Assembly: GCA_048617235.1 (NCBI GenBank)
Contig: JBMCHT010000001.1
Span: 54,043-118,042 of the forward strand
Direction: 5' to 3'
Length of the DNA stretch: 64,000 nucleotides
Source: Patescibacteria group bacterium
Lineage (GTDB): Bacteria; Patescibacteriota; Minisyncoccia; Phycocordibacterales; XYD1-FULL-46-19
Below are positions 4,215 through 56,443 of the stretch, one piece after another. Both the position numbers and the translations under genes were made by a program. Positions within the stretch are counted from its first letter, which is position 1. Each line of letters starts with the position of its first letter. Below the pieces are notes generated by a model. It saw nothing but the letters and a program-made list of their open reading frames with translations. It was not told where the DNA came from and did not search any database.

Positions 4215-4332
4215 AAAGAACCCCGGCAATATCTAACTACGACACTGCCGGGGAGTAGGTGGTTTCCGGAGAGCGCCGGATAAGAAAAAGGCGCTCAACC
4301 CGGAAACCGAGGGAAGGAAGGTCATTTAATCT
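4215..4332 (-). ncRNA. Candidate ~118-nt small RNA (unclassified), transcribed convergently into the scpA 3' end
   Basis: Minus-strand consensus promoter TTGACA(4362-4367)-N17-TATAAT(4339-4344). GC-rich nested hairpins (GGTTTCCGG...CCGGAAACC). Intrinsic terminator CCCCGGCA-N17-TGCCGGGG plus U-run ending ~4215. 5' region carries CCUUCCUUCCCUC. Confidence 0.45.
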
Positions 4333-4361
4333 GTCGTTATTATATATTTTATCAAATAATA

Positions 4362-4367
4362 TGTCAA
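4362..4367 (-). promoter_or_regulatory. -35 box (TTGACA) of the candidate sRNA promoter; -10 TATAAT at 4339-4344
   Basis: Exact sigma70 consensus hexamers with 17-nt spacer, read on the minus strand. Confidence 0.5.
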
Positions 4368-4410
4368 TACCCATTTGCTAAAAAGATGAAAAAAAGTTAA
4401 TCTTATAGGT

Positions 4411-4983
4411 ATGAATTTAGGTCAAAAAATAGAAGCTTTGTTATTTTATAAGGCGGAACCACTTAAAAAAAATAAAATAATTGAATGGCTTCAAACAGAT
4501 TTTCAATCTCTAACAGAGGCTGTTTCAGAGCTAAAAGTACTTTTAAACAATCGGGGGTTGATTTTAATAGAAACAGATGACAGTTTGGCTTTGGGTACCA
4601 GGCCGGAATTAGCGGAACTATTAGCTGAAATAGATAAAAAAGAATTAGAGTCCAATTTGGGGCCTGCCGGTTTAGAAGTTTTGGCTATAGTTTTATACCA
4701 AGGACCGATTACCAGAGCCGGAATAGATTATATTCGAGGAGTTAATTCTAGCTCGACCTTGCGTCAACTAACTATGAGAGGCTTATTGGAGAAAAATAAA
4801 AATATTAATGGAGATAATAAAACTTTGGTTTATAAACCAACTATTGATTTATTAACTAAACTGGGAATTAGTAATTTGAATGATTTGCCGGATTACCAAA
4901 CCATTAAAACTAAGATGAATTCTTTTAAACAAGATGAAGGTGAAGATGAAACAAAAAACCAAACTTATGAAAAAGAAAATTAA
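4411..4983 (+). CDS. scpB: Segregation and condensation protein B
   Basis: 'LEVLAIVLYQGPITRAGIDYIRGV' winged-helix ScpB signature. Follows scpA. Confidence 0.85.
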   Translation: MNLGQKIEALLFYKAEPLKKNKIIEWLQTDFQSLTEAVSELKVLLNNRGLILIETDDSLALGTRPELAELLAEIDKKELESNLGPAGLEVLAIVLYQGPITRAGIDYIRGVNSSSTLRQLTMRGLLEKNKNINGDNKTLVYKPTIDLLTKLGISNLNDLPDYQTIKTKMNSFKQDEGEDETKNQTYEKEN

Positions 4984-5899
4984 TTTTAATATTGTTAATA
5001 AAATTATATTAGTGATTGCCACTTTAGGACTGTTTTCACTTATTATTATCGGCTTACCTTGGCAAGAAGCCAATAATTCCTTACAACTGGCGGCAATTGA
5101 AGCCGGATCTCCAAACCAAGAACAACCGGTTGATTATTGGACAGAATTAGAATTATCAGCTGAAGCTGCCGCTGTTTATAATATAACTACCGAAGAATTC
5201 ATTTTTGAAAAAAAATTAAATAAACATCTGCCAATCGCTTCAGTAACCAAATTAATGACCATAATTACGGCAGTTGATTATTTAAATTATGAAGACAAAA
5301 TAACTATCGAATCATCTGAGGCCGGAATAATAAGCAGCGCCGGTTTACAAACAGGAGATACTTGGAGATTTGAAGATTTGGCTCGTTTTACTTTAATTAC
5401 TTCCAGTAATGGGGGAGCGACAGCTATTGCTCGAGCAGCCGGTCAAAAAGCCGGAGATGAAAATTTTATCAGTTTGATGAATAAAAAAGCTAAAGATCTT
5501 GGTTTAAATAATACTTTTTTTGTTAATTCAACAGGTTTGGATGTAGGTGGTCAACACAGCGGTTCTTATAGTACCGCTCGAGAAATAACTTTATTAATGG
5601 TTAAACTGTGGCAACAAGAATCAGATTTACTAACTTCAACCGGTTTAACTTCAACTTCTTTTACAACTACAAGCGGCCGTCGCTACCCAGCCACCAACAC
5701 TAATAAGAAAATGGATATTATGCCCGGTTTAGTGGCTTCCAAAACCGGATATACCGGTAACGCCGGAGGTAATTTAACTACAGTGGTAGATATTGGTCCG
5801 GGAAATTATTATGTCATTACAGTTTTAGGATCTACTCGAGAACAAAGAACCGAGGATATCAGTAAAATGATCTTTACTCTTATTAAATCTTTAAAATAA
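4934..5899 (+). CDS. dacA: D-alanyl-D-alanine carboxypeptidase (serine peptidase S11, PBP5-like). Start may be ATG 4946.
   Basis: SxxK 'SVTKLM', SxN 'SSNGGA', KTG 'KTGYTG' motifs. N-terminal TM/signal. Confidence 0.8.
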   Translation: MKVKMKQKTKLMKKKINFNIVNKIILVIATLGLFSLIIIGLPWQEANNSLQLAAIEAGSPNQEQPVDYWTELELSAEAAAVYNITTEEFIFEKKLNKHLPIASVTKLMTIITAVDYLNYEDKITIESSEAGIISSAGLQTGDTWRFEDLARFTLITSSNGGATAIARAAGQKAGDENFISLMNKKAKDLGLNNTFFVNSTGLDVGGQHSGSYSTAREITLLMVKLWQQESDLLTSTGLTSTSFTTTSGRRYPATNTNKKMDIMPGLVASKTGYTGNAGGNLTTVVDIGPGNYYVITVLGSTREQRTEDISKMIFTLIKSLK

Positions 5900-5906
5900 T
5901 ATAATT

Positions 5907-6974
5907 ATGACCGGTATATATCTAGATATTTTCAAAGTCTTTGTACCAACTTTAACCGCTTTTGTGGTGGGAATTTCTTTAACCCCTGTTTTAACTCATT
6001 ATTTATATAAACATAAATTATGGAAGAAAAAAGCCGGTAAAATCTCTCCCGACGGACAAGCCACTCCGGTTTTTGATCGTTTACATAAAGATAAAGAAGT
6101 GGGCACGCCACGCATGGGGGGGGTGGTTATTTGGAGCAGTGTTTTAATTACAATCACTTTTTTTTGGCTTATATCTATTCTAATACCTGAATCCGATTTT
6201 TGGATTAAACTTAATTTTTTAAGCCGAAATCAGACATGGTTACCTTTATTTACTTTAATAGTAGCTTCTCTTTTAGGTTTGGCTGATGATTGGCTACAAG
6301 TATCTAGCACCAACAAAACCAATGAAGGTTTACCTTTTAATTATCGTTTATTGGTAGTCGGTTTTCTTGGATTAGTTGGAGGTTGGTGGTTTTTTGCCAA
6401 ATTAGGAATGACAGAAATCAGTTTACCTTTTTTTGAAAATAACCTTTATTTAGGCTGGTTAATAATACCGTTATTTATAATAATAATGTTAGCTTTGTTT
6501 TCCAGTGGAGTAATAGATGGATTAGACGGATTATCCGGTGGAATAATGTCTATAATCTTTTTCACTTATGCCGCTTTGGCTTTTTTTCAAACTCAAGTTA
6601 ATTTGGCTACCTTCTGTGCCGTGGTTGGTGGAGCTATTTTAGCCTTCTTATGGTTTAATATTCCGCCGGCTAGGTTTTATATGTCTGAAACGGGCATCTT
6701 GGGTTTAACCACCGCCTTAACAGTTGTAGTCTTCTTAACTGATTCTGTTTTATTATTACCAATCATTGCTTTACCATTGGTTGTCACTTCCGGTTCAGTG
6801 GTTATCCAAATGTTATCTAAAAAAATGCGACACGGTAAAAAAATCTTTAAGATAGCTCCTCTTCATCATCATTTTGAAGCTATTGGTTGGCCAGCCTATA
6901 AAGTGGTAATGCGTTATTGGCTGATAGGGATAATAGCCGCCATTATTGGTTTAATTTTAGCCTTAATCAGTTAG
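5907..6974 (+). CDS. mraY: Phospho-N-acetylmuramoyl-pentapeptide transferase
   Basis: Polytopic membrane protein. 'LADDWLQ' Asp pair, 'APLHHHFE' His motif. dcw context. Confidence 0.9.
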   Translation: MTGIYLDIFKVFVPTLTAFVVGISLTPVLTHYLYKHKLWKKKAGKISPDGQATPVFDRLHKDKEVGTPRMGGVVIWSSVLITITFFWLISILIPESDFWIKLNFLSRNQTWLPLFTLIVASLLGLADDWLQVSSTNKTNEGLPFNYRLLVVGFLGLVGGWWFFAKLGMTEISLPFFENNLYLGWLIIPLFIIIMLALFSSGVIDGLDGLSGGIMSIIFFTYAALAFFQTQVNLATFCAVVGGAILAFLWFNIPPARFYMSETGILGLTTALTVVVFLTDSVLLLPIIALPLVVTSGSVVIQMLSKKMRHGKKIFKIAPLHHHFEAIGWPAYKVVMRYWLIGIIAAIIGLILALIS

Positions 6975-6977
6975 AAT

Positions 6978-8084
6978 ATGTCTGCCCTCCCAAAACCTCA
7001 AAAAGCCAATCGTTTTTTATTGACTCTGGTTTTAATTATGACCGGAATTGGCTTTTTAATGTTTACCTCGGCAGCCATGGGAACATTAAGCCATAATATA
7101 CACATTTTTAATTTATTGGTGTCCAAACAATTCATTATTTTAATTTTTGGCCTTTGTTTAATGGTAGTTACCAGTCACATTCCTTATCCCAAGTGGCGCC
7201 AATGGGCTTTGTATTTTTTTGGTTTTGGACTTTTAGCTACTTTAGCTGTTTGGGTTCCGAGTCTGGGTTCTACACTCGGGGGGGCTAATCGTTGGCTTAA
7301 TATAGCCGGTTTTTCTTTTCAACCGGCCGAAATTTTAAAAATAGCTTATGTTATATACCTAGCCGGCTGGTTAGCTTCTGTTAAAGATAATATAGAAGAA
7401 ATTAAAGCCAGTATTATTCCGGCTGTTATTATTACAGCTTTAACTATTGGGGTCTTGGCTCTGCAACCGGATTACGGCACCATTTTAGTTATTACCGTAA
7501 GTGGAGGAGCTATTTTACTGGCTTCAAGAGCTCGCTATTTTCATTTATTTGTTTTAGGATTTATTGGTTTGCTTATAATTACAACCATGGCTTGGCAAAG
7601 TACTTATATTCAATACAGAATCCAAACCTTTTTAAACCCGGGAGAAAATTTACAGACTACCGGTTATCAAATAGATCAATCCATAATTGCCATCGGCTCC
7701 GGTGGTCTAACCGGTAGAGGTTTTGGTCAAAGTTTGCAAAAATTTGAATTTTTACCCCAACCAATAGCCGATTCAATTTTTGCAGTTGTAGCTGAAGAGT
7801 TTGGTTTTATTGGTAGTTTTATTTTAATTTTTCTCTATGCCATGTTAGCTTGTATTGGAATTAAAATAGCTTCCAAAGCCAAAGACGATTTTGGTAGACT
7901 ACTGGCTATTGGAATTGTTATACTGATCGTATCCCAATCTTTTATTAACATCGGGGCTATGATTGGACTCTTGCCCTTATCCGGTTTACCGCTTATTTTT
8001 GTCAGTCACGGGGGCACAGCTCTATTGTTATCTTTAATGTCTATTGGTATCTTACTTAATATTTCTAAATATCAAAAGAAATAA
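6978..8084 (+). CDS. ftsW: SEDS-family peptidoglycan glycosyltransferase FtsW/RodA
   Basis: 10-TM SEDS topology, 'FQPAEILKIAYVIYLA' motif. Between mraY and murG. Confidence 0.85.
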   Translation: MSALPKPQKANRFLLTLVLIMTGIGFLMFTSAAMGTLSHNIHIFNLLVSKQFIILIFGLCLMVVTSHIPYPKWRQWALYFFGFGLLATLAVWVPSLGSTLGGANRWLNIAGFSFQPAEILKIAYVIYLAGWLASVKDNIEEIKASIIPAVIITALTIGVLALQPDYGTILVITVSGGAILLASRARYFHLFVLGFIGLLIITTMAWQSTYIQYRIQTFLNPGENLQTTGYQIDQSIIAIGSGGLTGRGFGQSLQKFEFLPQPIADSIFAVVAEEFGFIGSFILIFLYAMLACIGIKIASKAKDDFGRLLAIGIVILIVSQSFINIGAMIGLLPLSGLPLIFVSHGGTALLLSLMSIGILLNISKYQKK

Positions 8085-8086
8085 AT

Positions 8087-11829: not shown

Positions 11830-11865
11830 TTAATTTTATTCAGTTTTTATGTTAAAATAAAAAAA

Positions 11866-12879: not shown

Positions 12880-13186
12880 AATGAATTAGAAACAAGAACC
12901 ACTCAGATTAGATTAGACCTGAGTGGTTTTTGTTTGTTTTAATTTATTTGAATGGTTCGCAAAAGATATATTGTGCGAACCACTATTATCTTTATTCTAG
13001 CTATAAAAAACAACCCCCCTATGCATTTTTTAATTAAAATCTAATTTATCAATCAATTAAATTAAAAACTTTTAATAAAATAAAAAACATATTACACCTC
13101 TCCCCATTTAATCTCTTCCTTTCTTTAATATCTTTAATAAACTAATTTTATTGATTTAAATAAAAAATCTATCCACTCCACTCCCC

Positions 13187-13215
13187 TTGCCTAAAATCCA
13201 AATATTAGTCATAAT
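13187..13215 (+). promoter_or_regulatory. Sigma70-like promoter TTGCCT-N17-CATAAT
   Basis: Hexamers at 13187-13192 and 13210-13215 with 17-nt spacer. Drives the GC-rich element that follows. Confidence 0.4.
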
Positions 13216-13216
13216 A

Positions 13217-13500
13217 AAAATGGACTGTGCACCACAACTAAAAGGGAGGGAGGTGATTCTTATCGGCACCCAAACCACCACAAAGATGCCCGTTTTCAAA
13301 ATCTCGGAACACCGAGATGAAAACGGCTTCTTCAGCGTCAAACCGGTAAAGGCAACCCCGGTCGCCCCTACCAAAAACGGCAAAAAAGAGGAACCCGTCA
13401 AGCGGGATCCTCGCAACTAGCCTCACCCCCGGAGAAGCATATGATTATAGTCTCATACGGTGCACCCGAGACAAATCATGTCCTTCTCCGGGGCTTTTTT
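13217..13500 (+). other. GC-rich promoter-to-terminator unit, either a structured RNA or a small-protein mRNA (44-66 aa; ATG 13220, GTG 13253 or ATG 13286, stop 13420). Unclassified.
   Basis: ~55% GC in a ~35% GC background. 'AAAGGGAGGGAGG' purine tract. Long-range pairing GTGCACC/GGTGCAC. Terminal hairpin CCCCGGAGAAG...CTTCTCCGGGG plus T6 at 13427-13500. Confidence 0.35.
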
Positions 13501-13909: not shown

Positions 13910-13948
13910 TGTCTATCTGAATTAATTTAACTTATATTAACATAATTT

Positions 13949-14230: not shown

Positions 14231-14232
14231 AA

Positions 14233-14262: not shown

Positions 14263-14276
14263 ATAATAGTATTTTT

Positions 14277-14741: not shown

Positions 14742-14795
14742 GATATATTAAAATTTTATTTACCCTTAGAGTTTAACTCAAATTGACTTATTTGT

Positions 14796-15953
14796 CTAGT
14801 TTCCCTTAAAATACTTTTTTCCTTTTAATTTAGCAGGTAATAAATCTTCAGTGGTATAAAGCTCATAATCCCGACCATAACCCATTTTTTTTAACAAAGC
14901 CGTAGTGGCATTCAAAATTATTTTAGGTGGACGTAAAGCTCCAAACCGGCGGCAATCAGCGGCCGCTTGATCATAGGCCTCCACCACTCGTCTATCTTTT
15001 TTAGCTTTGGCTAAATAAATAGCAGTTTGAGTTAGATTTATTTTAATTTCCGGATATCCAATAACCTCGCTTGCTTTAAAAGCGGTGCCGGCCACCAAAA
15101 AAGCAGCCGTTTGAGATAAACCAATATCTTCACTGGCAAAAATTAGCATTCTTCTGGCTATATATTTGGGATCCTCCCCTGCTTCCAACATTCGAGCCAG
15201 ATAATAGACTGCGGCATCCGGCTGACTGGCTCTTAAAGACTTAATAAAAGCACTAGATAAATTATAGTGTTCATCCCCGGCTTTATCATAAGATAAAGAC
15301 ACGGCAGTGGTATTTTCTAACCAATTATCTATTATAGATTTGTTTATCTCTCCCCCAGCGGCTAAAAAATTAAGTTCTTCTAACCAATTAATAAATCTTC
15401 GAGCATCACCGGTGGCCATTTCCGCCAGATAATTTAAAGCTTCCGGTTTAATTTTAATTTCGGCTTTTTGAGCTATTTTAAATAAATGTTCCTTTTCCAG
15501 AGGTTTAAGAAGCCAGACCGACAATCTGGATAATAAAGGTGGTATAATTTCAAAACTGGGATTTTCAGTAGTAGCTCCAATTAAAACTATTTGCCCGGAT
15601 TCCACATACGGTAATAAAAAATCTTGCTGGCTTTTACTGAAACGGTGGATTTCGTCTAAAAATAAAATATTGTTATTCTGATTGATTATTTTTTTGATAT
15701 CCGCTTTTCCGGACGAAACGGCAGATAATTCGGTTACCGGTTTGTTTAAACCACGAGCATATAATCTAGCTATAGAGGTTTTACCCGAACCCGGAGGCCC
15801 CCATAAAATAAAAGAAGTTAATCGACCTGATTCCACTAAACGCCTAATAGCCCCTTCCGACCCCAATAAATGATCTTGACCTATCACTTCATTTAAATCT
15901 ATCGGCCTTATTTTTTCAGCTAAAGGTTTAAAATCCATAAAGTAAATAATCAA
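14796..15953 (-). CDS. rarA: Replication-associated recombination protein A (AAA+ ATPase)
   Basis: Walker A 'GPPGSGKTS', Walker B 'LFLDEIHRF'. C-terminal MgsA-specific domain. Confidence 0.9.
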   Translation of the reverse strand: MIIYFMDFKPLAEKIRPIDLNEVIGQDHLLGSEGAIRRLVESGRLTSFILWGPPGSGKTSIARLYARGLNKPVTELSAVSSGKADIKKIINQNNNILFLDEIHRFSKSQQDFLLPYVESGQIVLIGATTENPSFEIIPPLLSRLSVWLLKPLEKEHLFKIAQKAEIKIKPEALNYLAEMATGDARRFINWLEELNFLAAGGEINKSIIDNWLENTTAVSLSYDKAGDEHYNLSSAFIKSLRASQPDAAVYYLARMLEAGEDPKYIARRMLIFASEDIGLSQTAAFLVAGTAFKASEVIGYPEIKINLTQTAIYLAKAKKDRRVVEAYDQAAADCRRFGALRPPKIILNATTALLKKMGYGRDYELYTTEDLLPAKLKGKKYFKGN

Positions 15954-18831: not shown

Positions 18832-20201
18832 CACTTTACCATTCTATTGATAAAGAAAAAAAACCTTTGGAGAATAAAAAGGGGGTTATAAAAATATATT
18901 CTTGTGGCCCAACTGTTTATGATTCTCCTCATATTGGTAATCTCCGCTCAATGATTTCCACCGATTTATTAAACCGAGCCTTAAATTTTTTAAATTATAA
19001 AACTGAAACCGTTATAAATATAACCGATATCGACGATAAAACCATAAAAGGCAGTCAAGAAAAAAAACAATCCTTAAAAGAATTCACTCAAATTTACACT
19101 GATAAATTCTTCTCAGATTTAGCCAAACTTAATATTAAATTACCTGAACATACACCCAAAGCCACGGATTTTATACCTCAAATGATAGAAATGATAGAAA
19201 CTTTGATCGAAAAAGATTTTGCCTATAAAACAACAGATGGTATTTATTTTTCTATAGATAAATTCCCTGACTATGGTCATTTAATCGGGGTTCAAAAAAA
19301 AGATCAAGATAAAAATATTTCACGCTTAAAAATAGACAATTACGACAAAGAAAAAATAGCAGATTTCGCTCTTTGGAAATTTTATACCCCCAAAGACGGT
19401 CAGGTTAAATGGGAAGCTCCTTTCGGTGCCGGCCGACCGGGTTGGCACATAGAATGTTCAGCCATGGCTATTAATATTCTAGGGCCGACTATAGACATTC
19501 ATACCGGTGGTTCGGATTTAATGTTTCCTCACCACAGCAATGAGATTGCCCAATCGGAAAGTTACACCGGTCAAACTTTTGTTCGCCACTGGCTTCACTT
19601 TGGCATGATAAAAATAAATAATGAAAAAATGTCCAAATCTTTAAATAATTTTTTGGTTTTAGATGACTTACTCAAAGACAATATCCCTCCTTTGGCTTTT
19701 CGTTATTTAACCTTGGGAACTCATTACCGTTCATTATTAAATTTTACCGATCAAGCCATAAAAAATGCCCATCAAGCCTTAAACAATTTAGCTAAAAACC
19801 TTTTTGATCTAAAACAACAGACAAGCACCACGGGCACCGTTAATGAAGAAGCAGCAGAAGCATTTAAACAAACTTTAGAAAATGATCTTAATTTGCCACA
19901 GGCTTTATCTGTTGTTTGGCAAACCTTAAATAATAATTCAATTCAAGCAAGTGATCGTTTAATTACTATTTATTATTTCGATAAAGTTTTGGGTCTTAAT
20001 TTGGAAGCAATTATAAATAAAGCCAATCAACCCCCATCTGAGATAACCAAATTACATCTAGACAGATTAACCGCCCGCCAACAAAAAGACTGGCCTCTGG
20101 CAGATAAACTCAGAGCTGAAATTGAAGAAGCCAATTGGACTATTAGGGATATTTCTTCGAATAACAGCTATTTACTCCCTATAGACTTTTACCAACAGTA
20201 A
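18822..20201 (+). CDS. cysS: Cysteinyl-tRNA synthetase
   Basis: 'IYSCGPTVYDSPHIGNLRS' HIGH region, 'KMSKSLNN' KMSKS. Confidence 0.9.
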   Translation: MALTLYHSIDKEKKPLENKKGVIKIYSCGPTVYDSPHIGNLRSMISTDLLNRALNFLNYKTETVINITDIDDKTIKGSQEKKQSLKEFTQIYTDKFFSDLAKLNIKLPEHTPKATDFIPQMIEMIETLIEKDFAYKTTDGIYFSIDKFPDYGHLIGVQKKDQDKNISRLKIDNYDKEKIADFALWKFYTPKDGQVKWEAPFGAGRPGWHIECSAMAINILGPTIDIHTGGSDLMFPHHSNEIAQSESYTGQTFVRHWLHFGMIKINNEKMSKSLNNFLVLDDLLKDNIPPLAFRYLTLGTHYRSLLNFTDQAIKNAHQALNNLAKNLFDLKQQTSTTGTVNEEAAEAFKQTLENDLNLPQALSVVWQTLNNNSIQASDRLITIYYFDKVLGLNLEAIINKANQPPSEITKLHLDRLTARQQKDWPLADKLRAEIEEANWTIRDISSNNSYLLPIDFYQQ

Positions 20202-20277
20202 AATATCCACAAATTAACCACCAAATTATCTATTTTAAAAGAATTTTACTTCTGTTTTTTTATGCTAGAATAAACTC

Positions 20278-24284: not shown

Positions 24285-24432
24285 AATATTGAATTAAAGT
24301 TTTAATAATAATTTAAATTATAACATTTTTAATTTATATTCCTATGTTTTGAATAGAAAATATAAAAATAACACCCCGAGAAAGTTTCGTCTCCCGAGGT
24401 GCTCATCCTCTCCCCCACACCCCTCATATCTC

Positions 24433-24597
24433 TTAATTTTTGTTAAGAGACATAAGGGTACACGTTAATGAAACTCCCGCCATCACCCCCGCCCGCCAGA
24501 AATTGGGCGAGTCTAGGGCAGTGGCATCGAATATGGCTAGCATCAAGCTGATGCCAGCCATAAACGCCCAGCCGGTTTTTGTGAATTTAATACCCAT
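24433..24597 (-). CDS. Small (54 aa) hydrophobic protein encoded in a GC-rich islet. Alternatively a structured RNA.
   Basis: Strong RBS 'GGAATGGAGGAAAAG' 5 nt before ATG (24597). Product MGIKFTKTGWAFMAGISLMLAIFDATALDSPNFWRAGVMAGVSLTCTLMSLNKN. Two downstream hairpins, the second (CACCTCGGGA...TCTCGGGGTG plus TTATTTTT, ~24380-24420) an intrinsic terminator. Confidence 0.4.
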   Translation of the reverse strand: MGIKFTKTGWAFMAGISLMLAIFDATALDSPNFWRAGVMAGVSLTCTLMSLNKN

Positions 24598-24711
24598 CTT
24601 TTCCTCCATTCCTCTGTCTTATAGAGGGGTTAAAGTTTCAAAATCTACCGATAACTATAGCATATATTATTAAAAAAGTAAAGGTATTTTTAAATCAATT
24701 TTATTAAAAAA

Positions 24712-25515: not shown

Positions 25516-25745
25516 GTATTTATTATACCAAAAATTAAAAACTTTTTCTTGCTAAAAAAACATACTTCCGGCTTCACAAAGTGACCGCAGGCAAAGCAGT
25601 TTGCCTGCTTTACTTACTTGGTGATGAAATCATGTCCTTTGCTCTAACTTATTTCAAATCGCGAAGTGTACTTCCCCCATTTCATTAGACATCAACCTTC
25701 CTCTATTCTTTTGTAGAAAAATTAAACATATCTCTTTCCCATTCT

Positions 25746-26241: not shown

Positions 26242-26470
26242 TATTTAAAAAAGTAATTCACGTCCTTCTCGTACATCTTTGCAAACTTCTGTAACTCGAC
26301 AACATCGACACGCTGTTGTCCTGATTCCACGTTCGAGATATACGACTGTGGACGCTTTAGTTTCTTAGCGACCTAAACTTGCGTCAATCCTGCCTCTTGT
26401 CGAGCTTTTCGCAGTTTTTCAACGAAATAGGCATATTCCTTTCTATGGATTGACTTCTTTATATACTACT
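26242..26470 (-). pseudogene. XRE-family HTH transcriptional regulator with in-frame TAG and no canonical start
   Basis: Minus-strand translation '[65 protein letters not shown]'. Typical Cro/C1 HTH interrupted by TAG. ~45% GC. Confidence 0.5.
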
Positions 26471-26927: not shown

Positions 26928-27002
26928 TTGGTGACCCTACGGGGAATTGAACCCCGGTTTCCACCGTGAGAGGGTGGCGTCCTAGCCGCTAGACGATAGG
27001 GC
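26928..27002 (-). tRNA. tRNA-Glu (anticodon CUC), CCA encoded
   Basis: Cloverleaf: acceptor GGCCCTA/TAGGGTC, D-arm GTCT-AGCGGCTA-GGAC, anticodon stem CCACC/GGTGG with loop CTCTCAC, T-arm CGGGG-TTCAATT-CCCCG, then ACCA. Confidence 0.85.
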
Positions 27003-27051
27003 CATATATTCTGGCCAAAATAATAACACAAGAGTTTAAAAATATAAAGAT

Positions 27052-28425
27052 TTATTTTTCTTTTTCCAAATCTTTGGTTTCTTTTAATTCCAATTTTAAT
27101 CCAAGAGCAACCGGCTTTTCTTGCCAATAACCGTCTTGGCGACACAAAAGATCCTTGCTTTTATCCGGCTCTTTCATTAATTCCAAAACGGCTTTTTCCA
27201 TTCTTATAGCCTGAGAAGCTTTAAATAACACAACATCTCCCGGTTCTAATAAATCTTGTAATTCTCTGGCTGCTTTTTCGCTAGATTCAAACACTTTTAC
27301 TTCTTCCGGATTCATACCGGCATCAATAGCGGCTTCCGCTAAAAATCTGGCTCGTAAACCAACCGCAAATAATTTATCGCAAATACCGACGGCTTGTTTT
27401 CCGGCCTCTCGGTGAGAATTAACTGTTTCTGTTCCTAATTCCAACATATCTCCCAAAACCGCTATTTTCCGACCGTTTATCTCCAATTTATTTAATAAAT
27501 TTAAAGCACTGCTTAAAGCCTCCGGAGAAGAATTGTAAGTATCATCTATTAATAAAGTATTTTTTATACCCCAAATTAATCTCATTCTTCCCGGTGGTGA
27601 TTCATAAGCTGAAAAACTTTCGGTCATTTCCACTAAATTAAAACCGGAACCGAAACCGGCCGCTAAAGCCGCCAAAGCCGATTGCACGGCTCCTGAACCC
27701 AAAACCCCCATAATTCTAACCGGTACGGTTGAGCCCCCCATCTTAACACTAAAACCGGTTCCTACCGGCCACCGAAGATTATTATCTTCTTGGTAAATAA
27801 CATGAACTTCATGAGCCGCCACATCCGCCTTTTCACTTAAACCAAAACTTTTTGCTTGGCCGGAGAATAAAGCGACGGCTCCTTTGGCATCTTGATTGTC
27901 CTCATTATAAACCAGTAAACCGTCAGGTTTGAGAGTCTTGACCAATGAATGTTTTTCGGCCACCAAATGATCTCGGGAATTAAAAAATTCTATATGAGGA
28001 GGAATTTCGGGAATGGGATTAATAATAACAATTTCTGCAGATAACCACTCAGCCAATTGAGAAATATCTCTCGGCCTGTCTGCTCCTACTTCCAAAACCA
28101 GCCATTCCGGATAAGTTTTAGACCAAATTATTTTTTTAAATCCTTTTACTAAATTTTTTATCCAACCCCAATAACTATCCCAGGCAGTATCCAAATCTAA
28201 AACCGCCAAAGGTAAACCGATATCGCTGTTATAGCTTTTTTGGCTTTTACCGGTTTGAAAAAAAGAATTAAAAAGCGTATAAACCGCTTCTTTAGTGGAG
28301 GTTTTACCAATACTGCCGGTGATTAAAATCAATCTTGGTTTATACCTCCACAAAACCAAACGAGCCTCCCAAGTAAATAGGATTTTAACAAATTTTTTAA
28401 TTATATTTTTAAATGTATCTTTCAT
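27052..28425 (-). CDS. murF: Mur ligase family (UDP-MurNAc-tripeptide--D-Ala-D-Ala ligase MurF-like)
   Basis: 'LILITGSIGKTSTKEAV' Mur ligase P-loop. Position after ftsI in the dcw cluster. 457 aa. Confidence 0.7.
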   Translation of the reverse strand: MKDTFKNIIKKFVKILFTWEARLVLWRYKPRLILITGSIGKTSTKEAVYTLFNSFFQTGKSQKSYNSDIGLPLAVLDLDTAWDSYWGWIKNLVKGFKKIIWSKTYPEWLVLEVGADRPRDISQLAEWLSAEIVIINPIPEIPPHIEFFNSRDHLVAEKHSLVKTLKPDGLLVYNEDNQDAKGAVALFSGQAKSFGLSEKADVAAHEVHVIYQEDNNLRWPVGTGFSVKMGGSTVPVRIMGVLGSGAVQSALAALAAGFGSGFNLVEMTESFSAYESPPGRMRLIWGIKNTLLIDDTYNSSPEALSSALNLLNKLEINGRKIAVLGDMLELGTETVNSHREAGKQAVGICDKLFAVGLRARFLAEAAIDAGMNPEEVKVFESSEKAARELQDLLEPGDVVLFKASQAIRMEKAVLELMKEPDKSKDLLCRQDGYWQEKPVALGLKLELKETKDLEKEK

Positions 28426-47348: not shown

Positions 47349-47360
47349 TATTTTAATAAT

Positions 47361-49081: not shown

Positions 49082-49154
49082 TAGATATTAAATTGTTTAA
49101 TAAACCCAACCATCATCATTATAACATAATCAACCACCCAATTTAACCTTAAAA

Positions 49155-49385
49155 TTAAATAATTTTTAACAGTTTATTAGGGAGTCGTTGACCGGATATA
49201 ATAACCACTTTTTTCCCTTTAAAATATTTCGATACCACCTCAAGTAATCTGTGATTAGCTAATCCTTTTTCCGGTTTTATTTTAAGACATATTTCTAAGC
49301 GACCATCGGCTAAAACCCGAATAACCTCTTTTTTACAATCAGTTTTAACTTTTACTCGAATATAACCATTTTCATCCATAATCAT
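49155..49385 (-). CDS. DUF167/YggU family protein
   Basis: 'IRVKVKTDCKKEVI...LEICLKIKPEKGLANHRLLEVVSKYF' fits the UPF0235 pattern. Confidence 0.6.
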   Translation of the reverse strand: MIMDENGYIRVKVKTDCKKEVIRVLADGRLEICLKIKPEKGLANHRLLEVVSKYFKGKKVVIISGQRLPNKLLKII

Positions 49386-49411
49386 ATTATTTTATGTTAT
49401 AATAATACATC

Positions 49412-50392
49412 ATGACAGACAATTTTTATAATAATTTTATAGCTGAATTAAAAAGTTGGTCTCAACAATTAAAATGGCAACCAGACATTGAATTACCTAC
49501 CCTAGCCGAAAATCTTCCTATTGTTGTTGCCGGTATGGGCGGTTCCGGTTTACCCGGTCGCATCCTTAAAACTTATAGCCAAAAACAAATAATTAATCAT
49601 CATAATTATGGTTTACCTCAAAATATAACCAAGGCTACTTTAGTCGCTATTTCCTATTCCGGCAATACCACAGAAACTATAGATGCTCTAAAAACCGCTC
49701 TCAAAGCCAATTGGCCGGTTGTAGTTATAACCGGTGGTGGCCAATTAAAACAATTAGCTATCGATTATAATCTTCCACTGATAGAAATTCCCCCGATAGT
49801 TTCTCAACCTCGACTGGCTTTACCAATAGTAACCAAAATCTTGGCTCATATCTTATTAGAAACAAATATTATTCAAGAAATAGAAAAGACCGCTAATCAG
49901 TTAGCTTTTGATTCTTTAACAAGCATTGCTCAAGCTATGGCTCAAAATACCCAAAATAATTGGCCGGTTATTTTAACCACCGCTGAATACGCTACCTTAG
50001 CCTATATTTGGAAAATTTCCATTAATGAAAATGCCAAAAGACCGGCTTTAATTTCCATTATTCCGGAAATGAATCACAATGAAATTGAAGGTCTCTTAAA
50101 TAACAAGCAAGAGATTTCTCTAATCGCCCTCACCGCTTCCCAGAAAAACAATCATCCAAATCAAAAAAGATTAAATTTAACTTTAGAAATAGCCAAAGAT
50201 TTAAATCAAGTAACTTTTGTTTATGATTTACTTAACGAACAAATTAATAATTTTTGGAATGGAACACTTTTAGGTAATCTTTATTCTCTGGAATTAGCTA
50301 AAATCAATGGAACTGATCCCTTAACTGTTCCCGTAATAGAAAAGTTCAAACAAAAGTTATCCTCTACAGATGACTTTACAAAAAAGATTTAA
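49412..50392 (+). CDS. SIS-domain bifunctional phosphoglucose/phosphomannose isomerase (archaeal-type)
   Basis: 'VVAGMGGSGLPGRIL' and 'AISYSGNTTET' SIS motifs. Two-SIS architecture, ~326 aa. Confidence 0.65.
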   Translation: MTDNFYNNFIAELKSWSQQLKWQPDIELPTLAENLPIVVAGMGGSGLPGRILKTYSQKQIINHHNYGLPQNITKATLVAISYSGNTTETIDALKTALKANWPVVVITGGGQLKQLAIDYNLPLIEIPPIVSQPRLALPIVTKILAHILLETNIIQEIEKTANQLAFDSLTSIAQAMAQNTQNNWPVILTTAEYATLAYIWKISINENAKRPALISIIPEMNHNEIEGLLNNKQEISLIALTASQKNNHPNQKRLNLTLEIAKDLNQVTFVYDLLNEQINNFWNGTLLGNLYSLELAKINGTDPLTVPVIEKFKQKLSSTDDFTKKI

Positions 50393-50473
50393 GTTATACC
50401 ATTATAAATGGAGAGAAAGTTATAGGAAGACTTTCTCAAGAAGGAAAGAAAAAGGAAGGAAGGAAGGGAAAAT

Positions 50474-50815
50474 ATGTCCGTAGTAGCCTCACACCCGCCG
50501 GCCGTTGAGCCGGCAAACGATCAAGTGGTACTGGAAGTCTCGGACTTCGCCTCGGGAAACCAGGTTGCCCGAAACCTCAAACTGGGCAACCGGTACGGGC
50601 GTCCGATGACTCAAGACGAGGTTCTGGAACAGAGCCTCGACCTCCTACAGGAGGGCGTCGCCATCCTCTGCCCGGGCCCCGGGCAGAAAAACTGCATCAT
50701 GATCTATACCGACGGTCGCGGCAACATTGTGGCCACGATCATTGAAGAGACGACCAGTTTCCCGGCCGGGGACTTCAAGGTCGCCTACATGGTGGCCGTC
50801 CCCAATAATTTCTAA
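50474..50815 (+). CDS. High-GC (~60%) small protein of unknown function. Likely foreign origin or an unusual constraint.
   Basis: 113-codon ORF after a 60-nt polypurine leader ending 'AAGGAAGGAAGGAAGGGAAAAT-ATG'. GC3-rich codon usage unlike neighbours. Followed by a terminator hairpin. Confidence 0.5.
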   Translation: MSVVASHPPAVEPANDQVVLEVSDFASGNQVARNLKLGNRYGRPMTQDEVLEQSLDLLQEGVAILCPGPGQKNCIMIYTDGRGNIVATIIEETTSFPAGDFKVAYMVAVPNNF

Positions 50816-50833
50816 CCCCCCTTCCCACAACCA

Positions 50834-50867
50834 CCCCGCGCCAAACTTGGTGCGGGGTTCTCTTATA
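50834..50867. terminator. Intrinsic terminator shared by the high-GC ORF (+) and uppP (-)
   Basis: CCCCGCGCC-aaacttg-GGTGCGGGG (9 bp with one G.U), followed by TTCTCTT. Confidence 0.5.
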
Positions 50868-52849: not shown

Positions 52850-52898
52850 AAAGATATTGTAACTAATATAACCCTTAGGTTCAAATTAATAAATTTAT

Positions 52899-53387
52899 TT
52901 AAAAAAACCAAATTAAACCAAAAATCAAAAAAGTTTGAAAAACAGGTTTAGCCAAAAAAATATTTTCAGTTTTAATTAAAAAATGACAAAAATGATGAAA
53001 TCTGACAAAAATCTTCAAGAAACGATTAGGCCATAATGAATAAATAAAAAACAACCAATCAGGCACCACCGCTAAGACAGCTCCGATCATAATTAACCAC
53101 AAAGAATTGTGGCCGGAAGCTACAAAAAACCAAACTAAAATTAAACCGACAGAAAAATCAATTGCCATTTTTAAACAATCATAAAAAAACCATTTATCAA
53201 ATTTAAATTTTAAACCAACCTCTTCGGATTCTTGATTAACTTGAAGAGATTTTAATTTATAATCCCAATGAGGAATAGCATCTAACACAAAATGGCTAGC
53301 TAGAGCTCCGGCTATCGCCAATGGTGGCCAAGGTGATAAAACTGCAGCCGTTACTCCCCCGGCTACTGCATGAGAAGTCCAAATCAT
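52899..53387 (-). CDS. YdjM/DUF457-like membrane-bound metal-dependent hydrolase
   Basis: 'HAVAGGVTAAVL...ASHFVLDAIPHWDY' His/Asp pattern in a 4-TM protein. Confidence 0.5.
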   Translation of the reverse strand: MIWTSHAVAGGVTAAVLSPWPPLAIAGALASHFVLDAIPHWDYKLKSLQVNQESEEVGLKFKFDKWFFYDCLKMAIDFSVGLILVWFFVASGHNSLWLIMIGAVLAVVPDWLFFIYSLWPNRFLKIFVRFHHFCHFLIKTENIFLAKPVFQTFLIFGLIWFF

Positions 53388-54322
53388 AAACGACCGGCCG
53401 CACAGGCATTATAACGATTAAGAGTTTGATTATAAGAAGCTACGGTAGCAGCCGCAGCTCTAAATCTGTTTTCATATAGATCAATTAACTCCCTAGTTTG
53501 GTCAAAATCTTGTTTATTTTTAGATTCTTCTATTTGATTACTTAAATCATTCAAAATAGACTTATGATCATCTAAAATTGTCAAAATAGAATGATCCGGT
53601 GCCGGACAATCTCTTTTTTTAATACCATAGATAATTATTACTATATACTTATCACCATAAGGACTAATAGCTATCCCTGCTTCTTTATAACCTGAACCGG
53701 CTCCGGAATGAGATCGAGCCGCTTTATCCAATAATTCAGCCAAAAAAGCCGAAGATACAGGATCAGTTATGGCTATTTGTTCAGCTAAACCGGCATAATC
53801 ATAGCCGGTTAAATTTATAGCCTCTTTTATTTGATTTTCATTAAATAATAATGGTTTCCCTTCTATAATAGCTTGAACTCGCCGAGTAGCTACAAAATTT
53901 AAATTATCATTTAAACTTAAACTAAATAATCCCCTTGCTTGTCGTTTTTGATTTAAATAAGTAAAAACCAAACTTACTTCTGGTTTTACATCTTCGTTTA
54001 TTTCTTTTTCCTCATCAGTTAGCAAATCATTTTTTTCTACCTCAACCTCTGGGGCGGAATAATTCACAGAAGGAACTGAAGATATAATTTTATCTGAAGG
54101 TGATCCTAATTGCGGTAAATTAGCCGGAGACCAATTATTAATATCTGTTATTGATTGTCTATCTATAATCGGAGTGGGATTTATAATTTCTTCCTCTTCA
54201 ACTATAATTTCTTCAACATCATTACTTCTTTCCACCCCCAAAAACCAGACCGTTAACCAACCGCTAACCAAAACTATAGCCATAATCAATAAAACTTTAA
54301 TTAAAATGGAAAATTCTTTCAT
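53384..54322 (-). CDS. Secreted/membrane-anchored hypothetical protein (possible CAP/SCP-like C-domain)
   Basis: N-terminal TM, acidic linker. C-terminal region with weak CAP-like pattern. Low confidence. Confidence 0.35.
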   Translation of the reverse strand: MKEFSILIKVLLIMAIVLVSGWLTVWFLGVERSNDVEEIIVEEEEIINPTPIIDRQSITDINNWSPANLPQLGSPSDKIISSVPSVNYSAPEVEVEKNDLLTDEEKEINEDVKPEVSLVFTYLNQKRQARGLFSLSLNDNLNFVATRRVQAIIEGKPLLFNENQIKEAINLTGYDYAGLAEQIAITDPVSSAFLAELLDKAARSHSGAGSGYKEAGIAISPYGDKYIVIIIYGIKKRDCPAPDHSILTILDDHKSILNDLSNQIEESKNKQDFDQTRELIDLYENRFRAAAATVASYNQTLNRYNACAAGRL

Positions 54323-55035
54323 AAAAATTTATTAGAAATAACAGTTCCTTTAAATTCCAAATTATTTAAATAATTATCTAATCGTTCTAAATGTTGACCA
54401 TTAATAATAATCACTTCCATATTTTCAGCTTGAGCCAATCTGGAAGCTTCCGGATCAAAAGGAGTAGATAATCCCGGATTCCAATCTTTGGGTATTAATT
54501 GTAAAAAATTAACCCAAGATATTTTGTCGTAAAATTCAGCTTCAATATTTTTTTGAGGATCTTCCTCATAAACATAATCTATATTAGATAAATTGATTAT
54601 TCTATCTGACCCTAAAGTTTTAGCTAAAGACACAGCACAATAATCAGTACTACGACCCGGTCGCCAACCGGCAGCCACCAATAAAGATTCCTCAAAAACA
54701 GGAAGAGCGGTTGGATTTTTAACCATCACCGGATGAGCTTCTTGATAAAAAATAGAGCGTAAAAGATGTCCATTCAAACGAGTCCCATGAATACCCAACC
54801 AATCCAAATCCTCAACCGATAAATCGGTTACCGCTTGACCGGCTTTTTGGTAACGCCTGGCAGTTTGACCACCACCGGTTATAAGCACAAATCGTCGACC
54901 TTTACTTATTTGTTCCAATAAAATATTTTTAAAAATTTTAAGAAAAGAAATATCAATATTATCAGGTACTATCAAAGACCCTCCGACTGATATAATAATT
55001 GGTTTTTCTTTTTTCATCATTAAAGAGTTTAGCAA
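54319..55035 (-). CDS. pyrH: Archaeal-type UMP kinase (amino-acid-kinase fold)
   Basis: 'IISVGGSL', 'ITGGGQTARRY', 'LGIHGTRLNGHLL', 'AGWRPGRSTDYCAVSLA...IDYVYEEDP' collinear with archaeal PyrH. Confidence 0.7.
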   Translation of the reverse strand: MLNSLMMKKEKPIIISVGGSLIVPDNIDISFLKIFKNILLEQISKGRRFVLITGGGQTARRYQKAGQAVTDLSVEDLDWLGIHGTRLNGHLLRSIFYQEAHPVMVKNPTALPVFEESLLVAAGWRPGRSTDYCAVSLAKTLGSDRIINLSNIDYVYEEDPQKNIEAEFYDKISWVNFLQLIPKDWNPGLSTPFDPEASRLAQAENMEVIIINGQHLERLDNYLNNLEFKGTVISNKFL

Positions 55036-55069
55036 TAAAACTAAGATTAGCCAACATAAATTAAATATC

Positions 55070-55097
55070 TTGACTTTAACAATATTATATTTATACT
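55070..55097 (+). promoter_or_regulatory. Sigma70-like promoter TTGACT-N16-TATACT
   Basis: Hexamers at 55070-55075 and 55092-55097, immediately upstream of the structured RNA. Confidence 0.4.
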
Positions 55098-55103
55098 ACA
55101 TTA

Positions 55104-55322
55104 TAGATGGGAGAAGGTGGCCGATCTAAGGCAAAAACCAACACACAATTCAGTAAAAAAACGCCTTGGTATTAACCACCTTCTCCCCTTCCTTCTGCCT
55201 TTTAAAGATAAAGCGGGGTCGAGACGACCCAAATCCCACAAACAGCTGTGAGGCCTGTTTGATGAAAGATTAGCCGTTCTCGGCTCCGCCCCCAACCCCC
55301 GAATAACTCGGGGGTTTATTTA
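55104..55322 (+). ncRNA. Candidate ~215-nt structured RNA (unclassified), promoter-to-terminator unit with no downstream same-strand gene
   Basis: 12-bp perfect closing helix GGGAGAAGGTGG(55109-55120)/CCACCTTCTCCC(55176-55187). Hairpins GGGTCG-aga-CGACCC and CAAACAG-N9-CTGTTTG. Terminator CCCCCGA-ataac-TCGGGGG plus TTTATTT. Confidence 0.45.
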
Positions 55323-55326
55323 TAAA

Positions 55327-55752
55327 TTATTCTTCAGTTAGTTGAGTTACCGTTCCCACCTGATCAGCCGGAGTTAGACCTAATTCAAATACCACCCACT
55401 GCCAGGCTGAAAGATTATTTAATAAATTTTCCCGAAAATTATTAAAATTTATATTTTGACTTTCTCCTTCCACTAAAATAGTTATTTGAGGATCTTTAAC
55501 TAAAATTAAATCTTTAATACCTGCAAGATCTTCATTATTACCAACCCCTCCTTCTAAATAATCCACCGGATCAACCACTAAATGCCATTCACTTTCAGAT
55601 TCATAAATATCTCGAATAAAAACAGTCTCGTAATCAACAATAGCTTGATTAACTTGATTACCATTCTGCCACCACAGCCAACCAGTTACAGCTAAAATTA
55701 ACAATAAACCACCAACTATATATTTTATTTTAAAATTTTCTCTTTGTCTCAT
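55327..55752 (-). CDS. Hypothetical membrane-anchored protein
   Basis: N-terminal TM 'YIVGGLLLILAVTGWLWW'. No known domain. Confidence 0.4.
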   Translation of the reverse strand: MRQRENFKIKYIVGGLLLILAVTGWLWWQNGNQVNQAIVDYETVFIRDIYESESEWHLVVDPVDYLEGGVGNNEDLAGIKDLILVKDPQITILVEGESQNINFNNFRENLLNNLSAWQWVVFELGLTPADQVGTVTQLTEE

Positions 55753-55836
55753 AATCTTTATTTTAACATTTTATATTTTTTTAACCAATTAAAAAACCCG
55801 GGGCTATCTCTTTTGCGAAATTACCCCGGGTGTGTT

Positions 55837-56265
55837 TTAGCGAGTCAAAATTTTGTCCACGCAGGGAACAAGGTGAGGCAATTGAAGACAGATTGTATTC
55901 CGCAACTCAAATACCTCACCGGGGGTAGAAGTGTGTTTAAAAGCGCCTTGCAAGCAAAGCTTAATCATCACCTCGGCCAATCCCTGTAGTGACTGACTCT
56001 CAAAAATAAGACTATCAATCAGCTTAATAATCTTTATCAAGTCAGCCGGTTCTTTGGCCTGAAGTCGAGCTTGGCACAAGGCCCTTAAAGCCAAGAGGCC
56101 GTCAATCCGACTGAAGGCCCGGCCAACCTCCAACCACTGCCAACACGCCAGATCCTCAATCAAAAGACCTTGAAAAAAGCGCTGGGCTTTCTCCCTAGTT
56201 TTCGATTGAGAATTTTGATTGACATACTGATTAAAAAGCTTCAGCATCTGATTCAAATCAGCCAT
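55837..56265 (-). CDS. Hypothetical alpha-helical protein (142 aa), second gene of a GC-richer two-gene operon. Start at ATG 56265, not the longer ORF-track call.
   Basis: Strong RBS 'AGAGGAGGA' 6 nt upstream. Start 1 nt after the zinc-ribbon gene's stop. Downstream hairpin plus T6 terminator (~55795-55830). Confidence 0.5.
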   Translation of the reverse strand: MADLNQMLKLFNQYVNQNSQSKTREKAQRFFQGLLIEDLACWQWLEVGRAFSRIDGLLALRALCQARLQAKEPADLIKIIKLIDSLIFESQSLQGLAEVMIKLCLQGAFKHTSTPGEVFELRNTICLQLPHLVPCVDKILTR

Positions 56266-56266
56266 C

Positions 56267-56443
56267 TTAAGTCCTCCTCTTTTTGCCCTCCAAACATTTC
56301 GGACACAAGTACCGACGCTGTCCCCGCTTATCCTTTTTGACAACCAAAGCAAAGGCCTGAACCCTGTTCGACCAGCGACCGGATTGGCCACAAATATCAC
56401 AAACCTGATTGTCCGGCAAAGAATAATAGACAGATACCTTCAT
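56267..56443 (-). CDS. Small zinc-ribbon protein (58 aa, CxxC-N27-CxxC)
   Basis: 'MKVSVYYSLPDNQVCDICGQSGRW...RYLCPKCLEG'. RBS 'AGGAAGAAG' 7 nt before ATG 56443. The ORF-track TTG extension is unlikely. Confidence 0.5.
   Translation of the reverse strand: MKVSVYYSLPDNQVCDICGQSGRWSNRVQAFALVVKKDKRGQRRYLCPKCLEGKKRRT

Follow-up and report, generated by a model that had tools for sequence, protein, structure and literature searches.

A 64,000-nucleotide (nt) stretch of contig JBMCHT010000001.1 (assembly GCA_048617235.1) from a Patescibacteria group bacterium, which we refer to throughout as the window, holds six short GC-rich islets (I1 to I6) in DNA of 35.1% GC overall, in agreement with the ~35% background given in an earlier sequence-only reading of this locus. 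The window was scanned in 100-nt segments (mean 0.351, standard deviation (sd) 0.074), and at a threshold of mean + 3 sd eight outliers were found, of which six are the islets and the remaining two are a tRNA-Glu gene (26929-27003) and a spot within the gene at 27052-28425. The 100-nt GC peak inside each islet span lies at 0.58-0.68. The sequence-only reading had placed the islets at 50-60% GC, and whilst all six spans are indeed outliers, three of them fall just below 50% (0.525, 0.507, 0.480, 0.591, 0.484, 0.458). An assembly artefact can be ruled out as their origin because a separate (Logan) assembly of run SRR11308339 is identical, at 100% over I1, I5 and I6, the islets compared.

The six islets are unrelated, self-contained transcription units, each with its own terminator, and they are of two kinds (Table 1). 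I2, I3, I4 and I6 are leadered mRNAs with Shine-Dalgarno (SD) sites encoding orphan small proteins, whilst I1 (minus strand) and I5 (plus strand) look, from their sequences, like non-coding small RNAs. The islets had previously been taken for a family, an idea that we reject because no significant sequence similarity was found among them, or between them and 160 Patescibacteria loci. The claim that each is bounded by a promoter and/or an intrinsic terminator agrees with our analysis, in which terminators were present at 6/6 islets and promoter matches at 5/6, the exception being I6, for which a convincing promoter was sought and not found. These calls are consensus and hairpin matches only, from which we infer transcription. 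In each islet GC richness appears to track the predicted transcript and to leave out its promoter and flanks, and unusually strong folding is likewise a property of the transcribed part and not of the flanks. Several islets are located between convergent gene ends. A scan of the whole window at Rfam 15 gathering thresholds returned the tRNA-Glu only and nothing on the islets, scans by E-value, run on the entire window and on I1, I2 and I5 individually, yielded only generic hairpin matches far below gathering scores, and ARAGORN found the tRNA-Glu and no tmRNA in the window. RNase P, tmRNA, signal recognition particle (SRP) RNA and 6S RNA, which the sequence-only reading had named as known RNAs that would refute it, are ruled out on these grounds, as are the other Rfam families.

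Table 1. Predicted features of the six islets, with positions in the window
Feature	Position	Strand	Description
I1 candidate small RNA	4215..4332	-	~120 nt; between scpA and scpB, antisense-oriented
I1 promoter	4339..4367	-	TTGACA-17-TATAAT; 12/12 consensus positions
I1 terminator	4253->4221	-	13-bp hairpin then UUCUUUUU; U-tailed, minus strand only
I1 seed CCUUCCUUCCCUC	4309..4321	-	reads GAGGGAAGGAAGG on + strand; in unpaired 5' tail
I2 promoter-like	13187..13215	+	TTGCCT-17-CATAAT; 9/12 positions
I2 transcript	13222..13500	+	SD-like tract AAAGGGAGGGAGGUGAU 13241-13258; open reading frame (ORF) end 13420
I3 promoter-like	24654..24682	-	TTTACT-17-TATAGT + upstream TG
I3 transcript	24365..24647	-	ORF 24433-24597; terminator 24403->24370
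I4 promoter-like	50375..50402	+	TTTACA-16-TACCAT; weak match, 9/12 positions
I4 transcript	50409..50862	+	ORF 50474-50815; terminator 50833-50858
I5 promoter	55070..55097	+	TTGACT-16-TATACT; 10/12 positions
I5 candidate small RNA	55104..55322	+	~215 nt; promoter, terminator 55294-55316
I6a	56267..56480	-	ORF 56267-56443; 58-amino acid (aa) zinc ribbon (CxxC...CxxC); GC at third codon positions (GC3) 0.54
I6b	55837..56265	-	142-aa all-helical orphan, NCBI ACOCU8_00620
I6 terminator	55790..55831	-	hairpin ACCCGGGG...CCCCGGGU then U6; read from sequence; 3' hairpin in fold

The SD strings that had been assigned to the islet ORFs were all located where they had been placed. I4 encodes a 113-aa orphan identical to the NCBI hypothetical protein ACOCU8_00585, and its GC at codon positions 1/2/3 (0.63/0.39/0.75) identifies it as coding. 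Its GA-rich leader carries AAGGAAGGAAGGAAGGG at 50450-50468, 5 nt before the ATG, and in the predicted fold a tract in the 3' untranslated region (UTR), CCCCCCTTCCC (50816-50830), pairs with the transcript's own SD region and so joins the 5' and 3' ends. The AlphaFold2 model of this protein (predicted local distance difference test score (pLDDT) 41.6) is unusable. I6 is a two-gene operon in which AGAAGGAAGAAG stands 3 nt before the zinc-ribbon ATG of I6a, CAGAAGGAAG lies in the 5' UTR at 56450-56459 (7-16 nt before the same ATG), and I6b, whose ATG has AGAGGAGGA 6 nt ahead of it, begins a single nt past the stop codon of I6a. The AlphaFold2 model of I6b is helical (pLDDT 65.9), and a fold search with it returned only generic TPR-like helical repeats at E > 0.1. 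I3 has GGAGG at 24603-24607, 5 nt before the ATG of a 54-aa membrane peptide with two hydrophobic helices (MGIKFTKTGWAFMAGISLMLAIF...; GC3 0.56-0.58). The product of I2 is a hydrophilic peptide (GC3 0.64-0.66) of 44 aa if translation starts at the ATG at 13286 and of 52 aa if it starts at an in-frame ATC at 13262. The tract AGGGAGGGAGGUGAU in I2 forms the strongest anti-SD duplex in the window (-22.3 kcal/mol), standing 30 nt before the ATG and 8 nt before the ATC, and the transcript ends in a long terminator hairpin (13427-13494) followed by U6. Two further features of these units may be recorded. The I4 coding region contains a palindrome, CCTCCTACAGGAGG (50641-50654), with SD-like and anti-SD-like halves, and the very AT-rich spacer upstream of the I2 promoter (13090-13200, +) holds the CU-rich tracts CACCTCTCCCC, CTCTTCCTTTCTTT and CCACTCCACTCCCCTT, which read SD-like on the minus strand, where a 13-codon ORF begins 5 nt after one of them.

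The promoter of I1 is the sole 12/12 match in the whole window and points into the islet (4367->4339). The RNA predicted from it consists, from 5' to 3', of a single-stranded tail AAAUGACCUUCCUUCCCUC, a 17-bp hairpin and the 13-bp terminator hairpin, with a fold z of -7.05 and the 5' tail unpaired. I1 had earlier been read on the plus strand, which we consider wrong since both the promoter and the U-tailed terminator occur on the minus strand only; the CU-rich tracts that had been described in two of the RNAs are real, although that of I1 is present in RNA only if the minus strand is transcribed. I5 is predicted to fold into a 5' hairpin, in which GGGAGAAGGUGG is paired with CCACCUUCUCCC, and a long second hairpin, the two being separated by an unpaired linker, CUUCCUUCUGCCUUUUAAAG (~55186-55212; I5 fold z = -6.76). 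The seeds of both RNAs are unpaired in minimum-energy and centroid folds alike, and both RNAs expose single-stranded CCUUCCUUC in these predicted folds. I1 and I5 have what is expected of trans-acting small RNAs, namely predicted promoter and terminator bounds and an accessible seed complementary to initiation regions. A seventh GC-rich element lies ~4.2 kb past the window end on L163, a Logan flank contig that extends beyond the window (15478-15683, -); behind a TTGACT-17-TATATT promoter, its multi-branched body is closed by a 17-bp stem and followed by a terminator with U7 (fold z = -4.4), and Rfam gave no match even at E <= 10.

The genes surrounding the islets use different translation signals. 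We counted an SD site where an anti-SD duplex of -6 kcal/mol or stronger could form within 20 nt before the start codon; a scan at a loose threshold gave 259 matches and was uninformative. SD sites were present in 2/64 host genes, compared with 8% of random positions, which bears out the description of the housekeeping genes as essentially SD-less, and GGAGG occurs at chance level overall (78 observed vs 81.5 expected). In 10/64 host genes, many of them first in an operon (e.g. 25516-25535, 49392-49411 and 20258-20277), the start codon follows the end of an extended -10 box (TGnTAnnWT) at a distance of 5-9 nt. This is the layout expected of leaderless mRNAs and implies that such mRNAs are widespread in the host. 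About half of Parcubacteria 16S genes are without the anti-SD motif (PMC9297842), a loss with which the scarcity of SD sites in these host genes agrees. The 16S rRNA 3' end was sought in the window and the reachable 10-kb flanks and was not found.

Codon usage separates the same two sets of genes. GC3 is 0.50-0.75 in the islet ORFs vs 0.18-0.33 in host genes, and since these ORFs are also all orphans, ordinary conserved proteins with host-like codons do not explain the islets. In a test that covered 83 genes over ~78 kb (the window and its Logan flanks), an SD site was present in 6/7 genes with GC3 >= 0.45 and in 4/76 of the remainder (Fisher p = 3.7e-6), the sole GC-rich gene without a counted site being I2, whose super-SD is displaced. 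Two members of the GC-rich class come from the Logan flanks, both just past the window end. One, at L163 12369-13397 (-), ~1.1-2.1 kb past the end, is a meso-diaminopimelate dehydrogenase, so named by NCBI and with 3wyb as its top PDB match (7e-52); it has GC3 0.59, the SD AAAGGAG 7 nt before its ATG and a GC-rich terminator. This enzyme is unusual for a Patescibacterium and looks acquired. The other, ACOCU8_00690 (L163 16996-17361, -), is a 121-aa orphan of the same SD-led class, with GC3 0.49, a TTGACT-17-TATAAT promoter and the SD AAAGGAGG 7 nt before its ATG.

The islets had also been described as highly structured, and their transcripts do fold beyond expectation, coding regions included. 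Fold z, calculated against dinucleotide shuffles, ranges from about -3.9 to -7.05 for whole islet transcripts (-6.99 for I2, -6.47 for I3 and -5.36 for I4) and from -4.2 to -5.5 for the coding regions alone, compared with -0.31 +/- 0.97 for 32 host windows. Synonymous-codon shuffles, which preserve both protein sequence and codon usage, gave z values of -4.5 (I2), -3.95 (I3), -3.7 (I4) and -3.6 (I6b), against -0.49 +/- 0.99 for the host. Compositional heterogeneity can be ruled out as the cause because shuffling within 30-nt blocks, which keeps local composition, revealed the same excess folding. Palindromic tetramers were considered as a second possible cause: CCGG abounds in the window (7.4 per kb) given its 35% GC, and GGCC is under-represented (observed/expected 0.74), biases that are common to islets (1.13 and 0.73) and host, and CCGG cannot account for islet-specific structure since its enrichment is equal in both. 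The coding region of the diaminopimelate dehydrogenase is likewise hyper-structured (z -2.8 to -4.2), whereas neither the zinc-ribbon ORF of I6a nor the 121-aa orphan is. As controls, GC-rich genes taken from other loci of the Candidate Phyla Radiation (CPR; Patescibacteria) gave z values mostly near -0.5, with a few outliers, and across 550 kb of AT-rich CPR loci the GC peaks were mostly in ordinary long ORFs that are not hyper-structured, on which evidence we reject a general Patescibacteria trait. The genes thus show a clean and statistically supported split between a host class that is AT-rich, SD-less and unstructured and a second class that is GC-rich, SD-led and hyper-structured. Because AT-rich, unstructured host genes lack SD sites and often leaders as well, the islet genes stand as a separate SD-dependent translational class, and the presence of a few SD-led genes amid such paucity implies a special translational regime for them.

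The link between the two kinds of islet is a set of exact complementary motifs. GAAGGAAGG has four copies over the two strands of the window taken together (expected 0.68), and these are confined to I1, I5 and I4, the last of which has two overlapping copies in its leader at the ribosome-binding site. At every copy the orientation is such that the small RNA would present CU and the mRNA GA, the I1 minus-strand and I5 plus-strand RNAs both carrying CCUUCCUUC. CAGAAGGAAG has two copies (expected 0.06; 0/100 shuffles reached two), found only in the I6 leader and, as its complement, in the unpaired I5 linker. When the I5 linker was paired with 69 translation-initiation regions, the top five duplexes were those with the five islet ORFs (-19 to -27 kcal/mol), compared with a mean of -7.8 +/- 3.5 for host initiation regions, and the I1 seed ranks the same five ORFs 1, 2, 3, 5 and 7. 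This ranking is partly circular because only islet genes have SD sites, and the exclusive exact 9-10-mers are the stronger evidence. Of the GA-rich/CU-rich RNA network suggested by the sequence-only reading, the complementarity stands, and is specific at the 9-10-mer level, whereas the network as such is a proposal drawn from sequence.

Our preferred reading of these data, which we hold tentatively and would place just short of an even chance, is a composite one in which the islets are accessory units of two kinds, SD-led small-protein mRNAs and CU-seed small RNAs acting on them. The SD-led mRNAs would be a class of their own in translation, distinct from the leaderless core genes, and the CU seeds of I1 and I5 would pair with the GA-rich ribosome-binding sites of these mRNAs, with I6 and I4 as the proposed partners of I5, and I4 and I2 as those of I1. 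Such pairing may block ribosome access and so selectively gate a small set of SD-led genes. The potential target set of the two RNAs is tiny because ordinary host genes offer no SD site. Trans-acting small RNAs with C/U-rich seeds are known to occlude SD sequences, as is the case for RsaE/RoxS and other UCCC-motif small RNAs of Bacillota. Like these, I1 and I5 each have a promoter of their own, a body made of stem-loops, an intrinsic terminator and a pyrimidine-rich seed that is left unpaired and is complementary to purine-rich ribosome-binding sites; unlike them, they are known here from sequence alone and have no sequence or Rfam similarity to draw on. Membership of any known family is not supported, and the closest resemblance is to the SD-occluding small RNAs of Bacillota and, in part, to type I toxin-antitoxin systems.

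As to where the islet genes came from, acquisition from SD-using, higher-GC donors is the reading that we tentatively favour. This is suggested by their GC3, by their canonical SD sites, by a conserved enzyme with the same signature and by an XRE-type pseudogene beside the tRNA-Glu. The enzyme is the out-of-window diaminopimelate dehydrogenase, the only member of the signature class with homologues, and its possession of an SD suggests that the signature marks acquired genes. For the foreign origin put forward in the sequence-only reading the signs are mixed: GC3 and the presence of SD sites argue for it, and the tetranucleotide signature is intermediate between host and unrelated DNA. The islet proteins have no match in Pfam, NCBIfam, PHROGs or PADLOC, and no homologues in IMG/VR, GenBank phages or PDB sequences; in a search over 5.8 billion protein sequences each query found itself only, and HMMER searches of 1.8 billion representatives gave only weak matches to long proteins in several short stretches. 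The closest relatives of the host pyrH gene, sought in GTDB representative genomes and JGI metagenomes, are Patescibacteria-type and at most 57% identical, and so the host belongs to an isolated CPR lineage. The islets were absent from the pyrH neighbourhoods retrieved at this level of identity.

Several observations weigh against our preferred reading and its acquired origin. Many coding-region windows genome-wide pair with the CU seeds equally well, and a CU tract will prefer any SD-like tract, so that the target ranking is suggestive and partly restates the presence of SD sites. If the anti-SD is absent from the host 16S rRNA, the SD sites of the islets could be relics. The start codon of I2 may be either the ATC at 13262 or the ATG at 13286, and I5 could instead be a near-leaderless mRNA or a dual-function RNA, given that an ATG at 55107, 9 nt after the -10 box, opens a 22-codon ORF, MGEGGRSKAKTNTQFSKKTPWY (55107-55175, +). 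With regard to origin, the islet proteins, all of them orphans, point to no donor, and in the GTDB representatives, the JGI metagenomes and the 5.8-billion-protein collection we found neither a close relative of the host nor any relative of a lineage-specific neighbour gene. The composition-normalised tetranucleotide signature of the islets correlates with that of the host at 0.46, compared with 0.65 +/- 0.06 for host chunks and 0.23 +/- 0.10 for unrelated GC-rich CPR DNA, and the avoidance of GGCC that islets and host share is as compatible with a long residence or a native origin as with acquisition.

The likelihoods that we give to the competing explanations were judged singly, and as some of these overlap with our preferred reading they are not meant to add up to certainty. 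The one that survives best, possible if on the doubtful side, is that the islets are the debris of horizontal transfer, that is, recent fragments from SD-using, GC-richer donors in which the SD sites are relics and no regulatory network exists. I1 and I5 would on this account, and with the same doubt, be ordinary structured small RNAs or terminator clusters, and the GA/CU match a by-product of low complexity. The gap in GC3 between islet and host genes, the conserved dehydrogenase bearing the same signature, the lack of mutual similarity, the placement of several islets between convergent gene ends, the pseudogenised XRE-type gene nearby and the lack of an anti-SD in some Parcubacteria (PMC9297842) are all consistent with such debris. 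It does not readily explain why the exact 9-10-mers occur only in islets and always in the orientation required for pairing between small RNA and ribosome-binding site, nor why every ORF is intact and has its own terminator and, outside I6, a promoter match. In tetranucleotide signature the islets are nearer to the host than unrelated GC-rich DNA is, a search of 5.8 billion proteins turned up no donor homologue, and no integrase, transposase, att-like or other flanking repeat was seen in the flanking genes scanned. Compared with known horizontal-transfer islets, then, those described here share an atypical GC3, donor-type SD sites, orphan content, a location at gene ends and an acquired-looking enzyme as neighbour, but differ in being single-gene units with their own promoter and terminator, in the lack of any visible mobility gene or att-like repeat, in a tetranucleotide signature that is half-foreign and in coding regions that are hyper-structured.

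Native origin is unlikely. Here the islets would be a special class of long-resident genes whose GC is kept by selection for stable folded transcripts and which are read by an SD-pairing ribosome state; long-lived or stress/dormancy mRNAs and small RNAs would be examples, and the SD-led rpsU of SD-blind Bacteroidia an analogue, these being suggestions to which we give the same low weight. Folding of the coding regions exceeds both synonymous and local-composition shuffles, and so the signal goes beyond base composition. The islets also share the host's CCGG excess and GGCC avoidance, their tetranucleotide correlation is intermediate, their GC richness appears to follow the predicted transcript and not its promoter or flanks, and the Bacteroidia provide a precedent (PMC9976891, PMC7797042). 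Set against this, no orthologues were found anywhere we searched, which is odd for long-resident functional genes, and the GC3 of 0.75 with GC2 of 0.39 in I4 is the codon-usage pattern of a GC-rich genome. Most GC-rich CPR controls are not hyper-structured, but because a few are, structure specific to a donor may also contribute. In the Bacteroidia, SD-blind ribosomes coexist with the rare SD-led gene, rpsU, whose product bS21 takes part in autoregulation (PMC7797042, PMC9976891, PMC13000453). The likeness to our locus lies in a genome-wide paucity of SD sites and a few genes that keep strong, correctly spaced ones; the difference is that the SD-led genes here are compositionally atypical, comprising orphan small proteins and the diaminopimelate dehydrogenase, and none of the islet ORFs matched a ribosomal protein family.

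A bolder form of our preferred reading posits two initiation regimes, a leaderless, SD-less core and a private SD regime for a small set of accessory mRNAs that are GC-rich and hyper-structured, gated as a group by I1 and I5 as mimics of the anti-SD. We regard this as decidedly unlikely, but if true it would mean that SD/anti-SD pairing, elsewhere a general signal for initiation, has here been turned into a code by which acquired genes are regulated.

Still less probable is an arrangement akin to a type I toxin-antitoxin system, of which hok/sok, tisB/istR-1 and bsrG/SR4 are well-known examples. I3, and possibly I2, would supply a toxin from a folded, SD-occluded mRNA, and I1 and I5 would be the CU-rich antitoxin RNAs. 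The 54-aa I3 peptide, short enough (<60 aa) for a hydrophobic toxin of this type and with its two hydrophobic helices, folded mRNA (z = -6.5) and strong SD, would suit such a role, the pairing of the 5' SD tract of I4 with CCUUCC in its 3' UTR resembles the fold-back inhibition of hok mRNA, and the small-RNA seeds target ribosome-binding sites. The resemblance to these systems in small hydrophobic peptide, folded SD mRNAs and RNAs complementary to ribosome-binding sites does not extend to most of the islet proteins, since neither the soluble 113-aa protein of I4 nor the zinc ribbon of I6a nor the helical 142-aa protein of I6b resembles a toxin peptide. Nor does any small-RNA unit adjoin I3 or lie antisense to it; neither I1 nor I5 is a neighbour of I3 or I2, I5 is 1.2 kb from I6 with a host gene between, and the islet proteins have no match in PADLOC or in toxin-antitoxin families. 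That all six islets are non-coding structured RNAs with accidental ORFs is highly improbable: although all the transcripts show strong excess folding and a 113-codon open frame is not very improbable at 59% GC, I4 has a clear three-base periodicity (0.63/0.39/0.75), each ORF opens with an SD and start codon and closes shortly ahead of the terminator, the products are protein-like (two hydrophobic helices, a CxxC...CxxC zinc ribbon and a helical fold), and only 1 nt separates the stop of I6a from the start of I6b.

GC-content screens have been used to find structured RNAs in AT-rich hyperthermophiles and Pelagibacter (PMC2704228). As in those screens, the tRNA, I1, I5 and the seventh element stand out here by GC and fold z, but four of the six islets are protein-coding, with their GC excess at third codon positions.

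Almost nothing is known of post-transcriptional regulation and small proteins in Patescibacteria, and our literature search found no description of small RNAs in this group; nor are islets of atypical composition known to have been described in the phylum. To CPR biology the present analysis adds three candidate small RNAs, all new, and five small proteins that are orphans or had no annotation. It also provides a testable model of how acquired genes are expressed or silenced in a lineage that is poor in SD sites and possibly without an anti-SD, and of whether SD pairing persists there as a specialised signal, with CCUUCCUUC and GGAAGGAAGG as the motifs to test. Should the network reading prove wrong, the annotation is still useful, as the islets are real genes and neither known RNAs nor assembly errors.

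Some minor observations were made alongside this work. Stretches that are GC-rich and strongly folded, carry no annotation and match nothing in Rfam or Pfam also occur on other Patescibacteria contigs, among them contig L053 at 19540-19780 (-), which has an extended -10 box and a terminator (fold z = -3.9), and the region of a 412-codon ORF on contig L001 at 2222-3460 (synonymous-shuffle z -4 to -5.8). Within the window, the remnant of an XRE-type helix-turn-helix gene (26250-26440, -; ~50% GC, with an in-frame TAG stop) sits in the 800-nt gap adjoining the tRNA-Glu gene and is probably what is left of a decayed mobile element. Past the end of the window, a group I catalytic intron was found inside a tRNA gene at L163 18350-18594 (-; Rfam, 108 bits), which ARAGORN, with introns allowed, identifies as tRNA-Asn(GUU) with a 242-nt intron.

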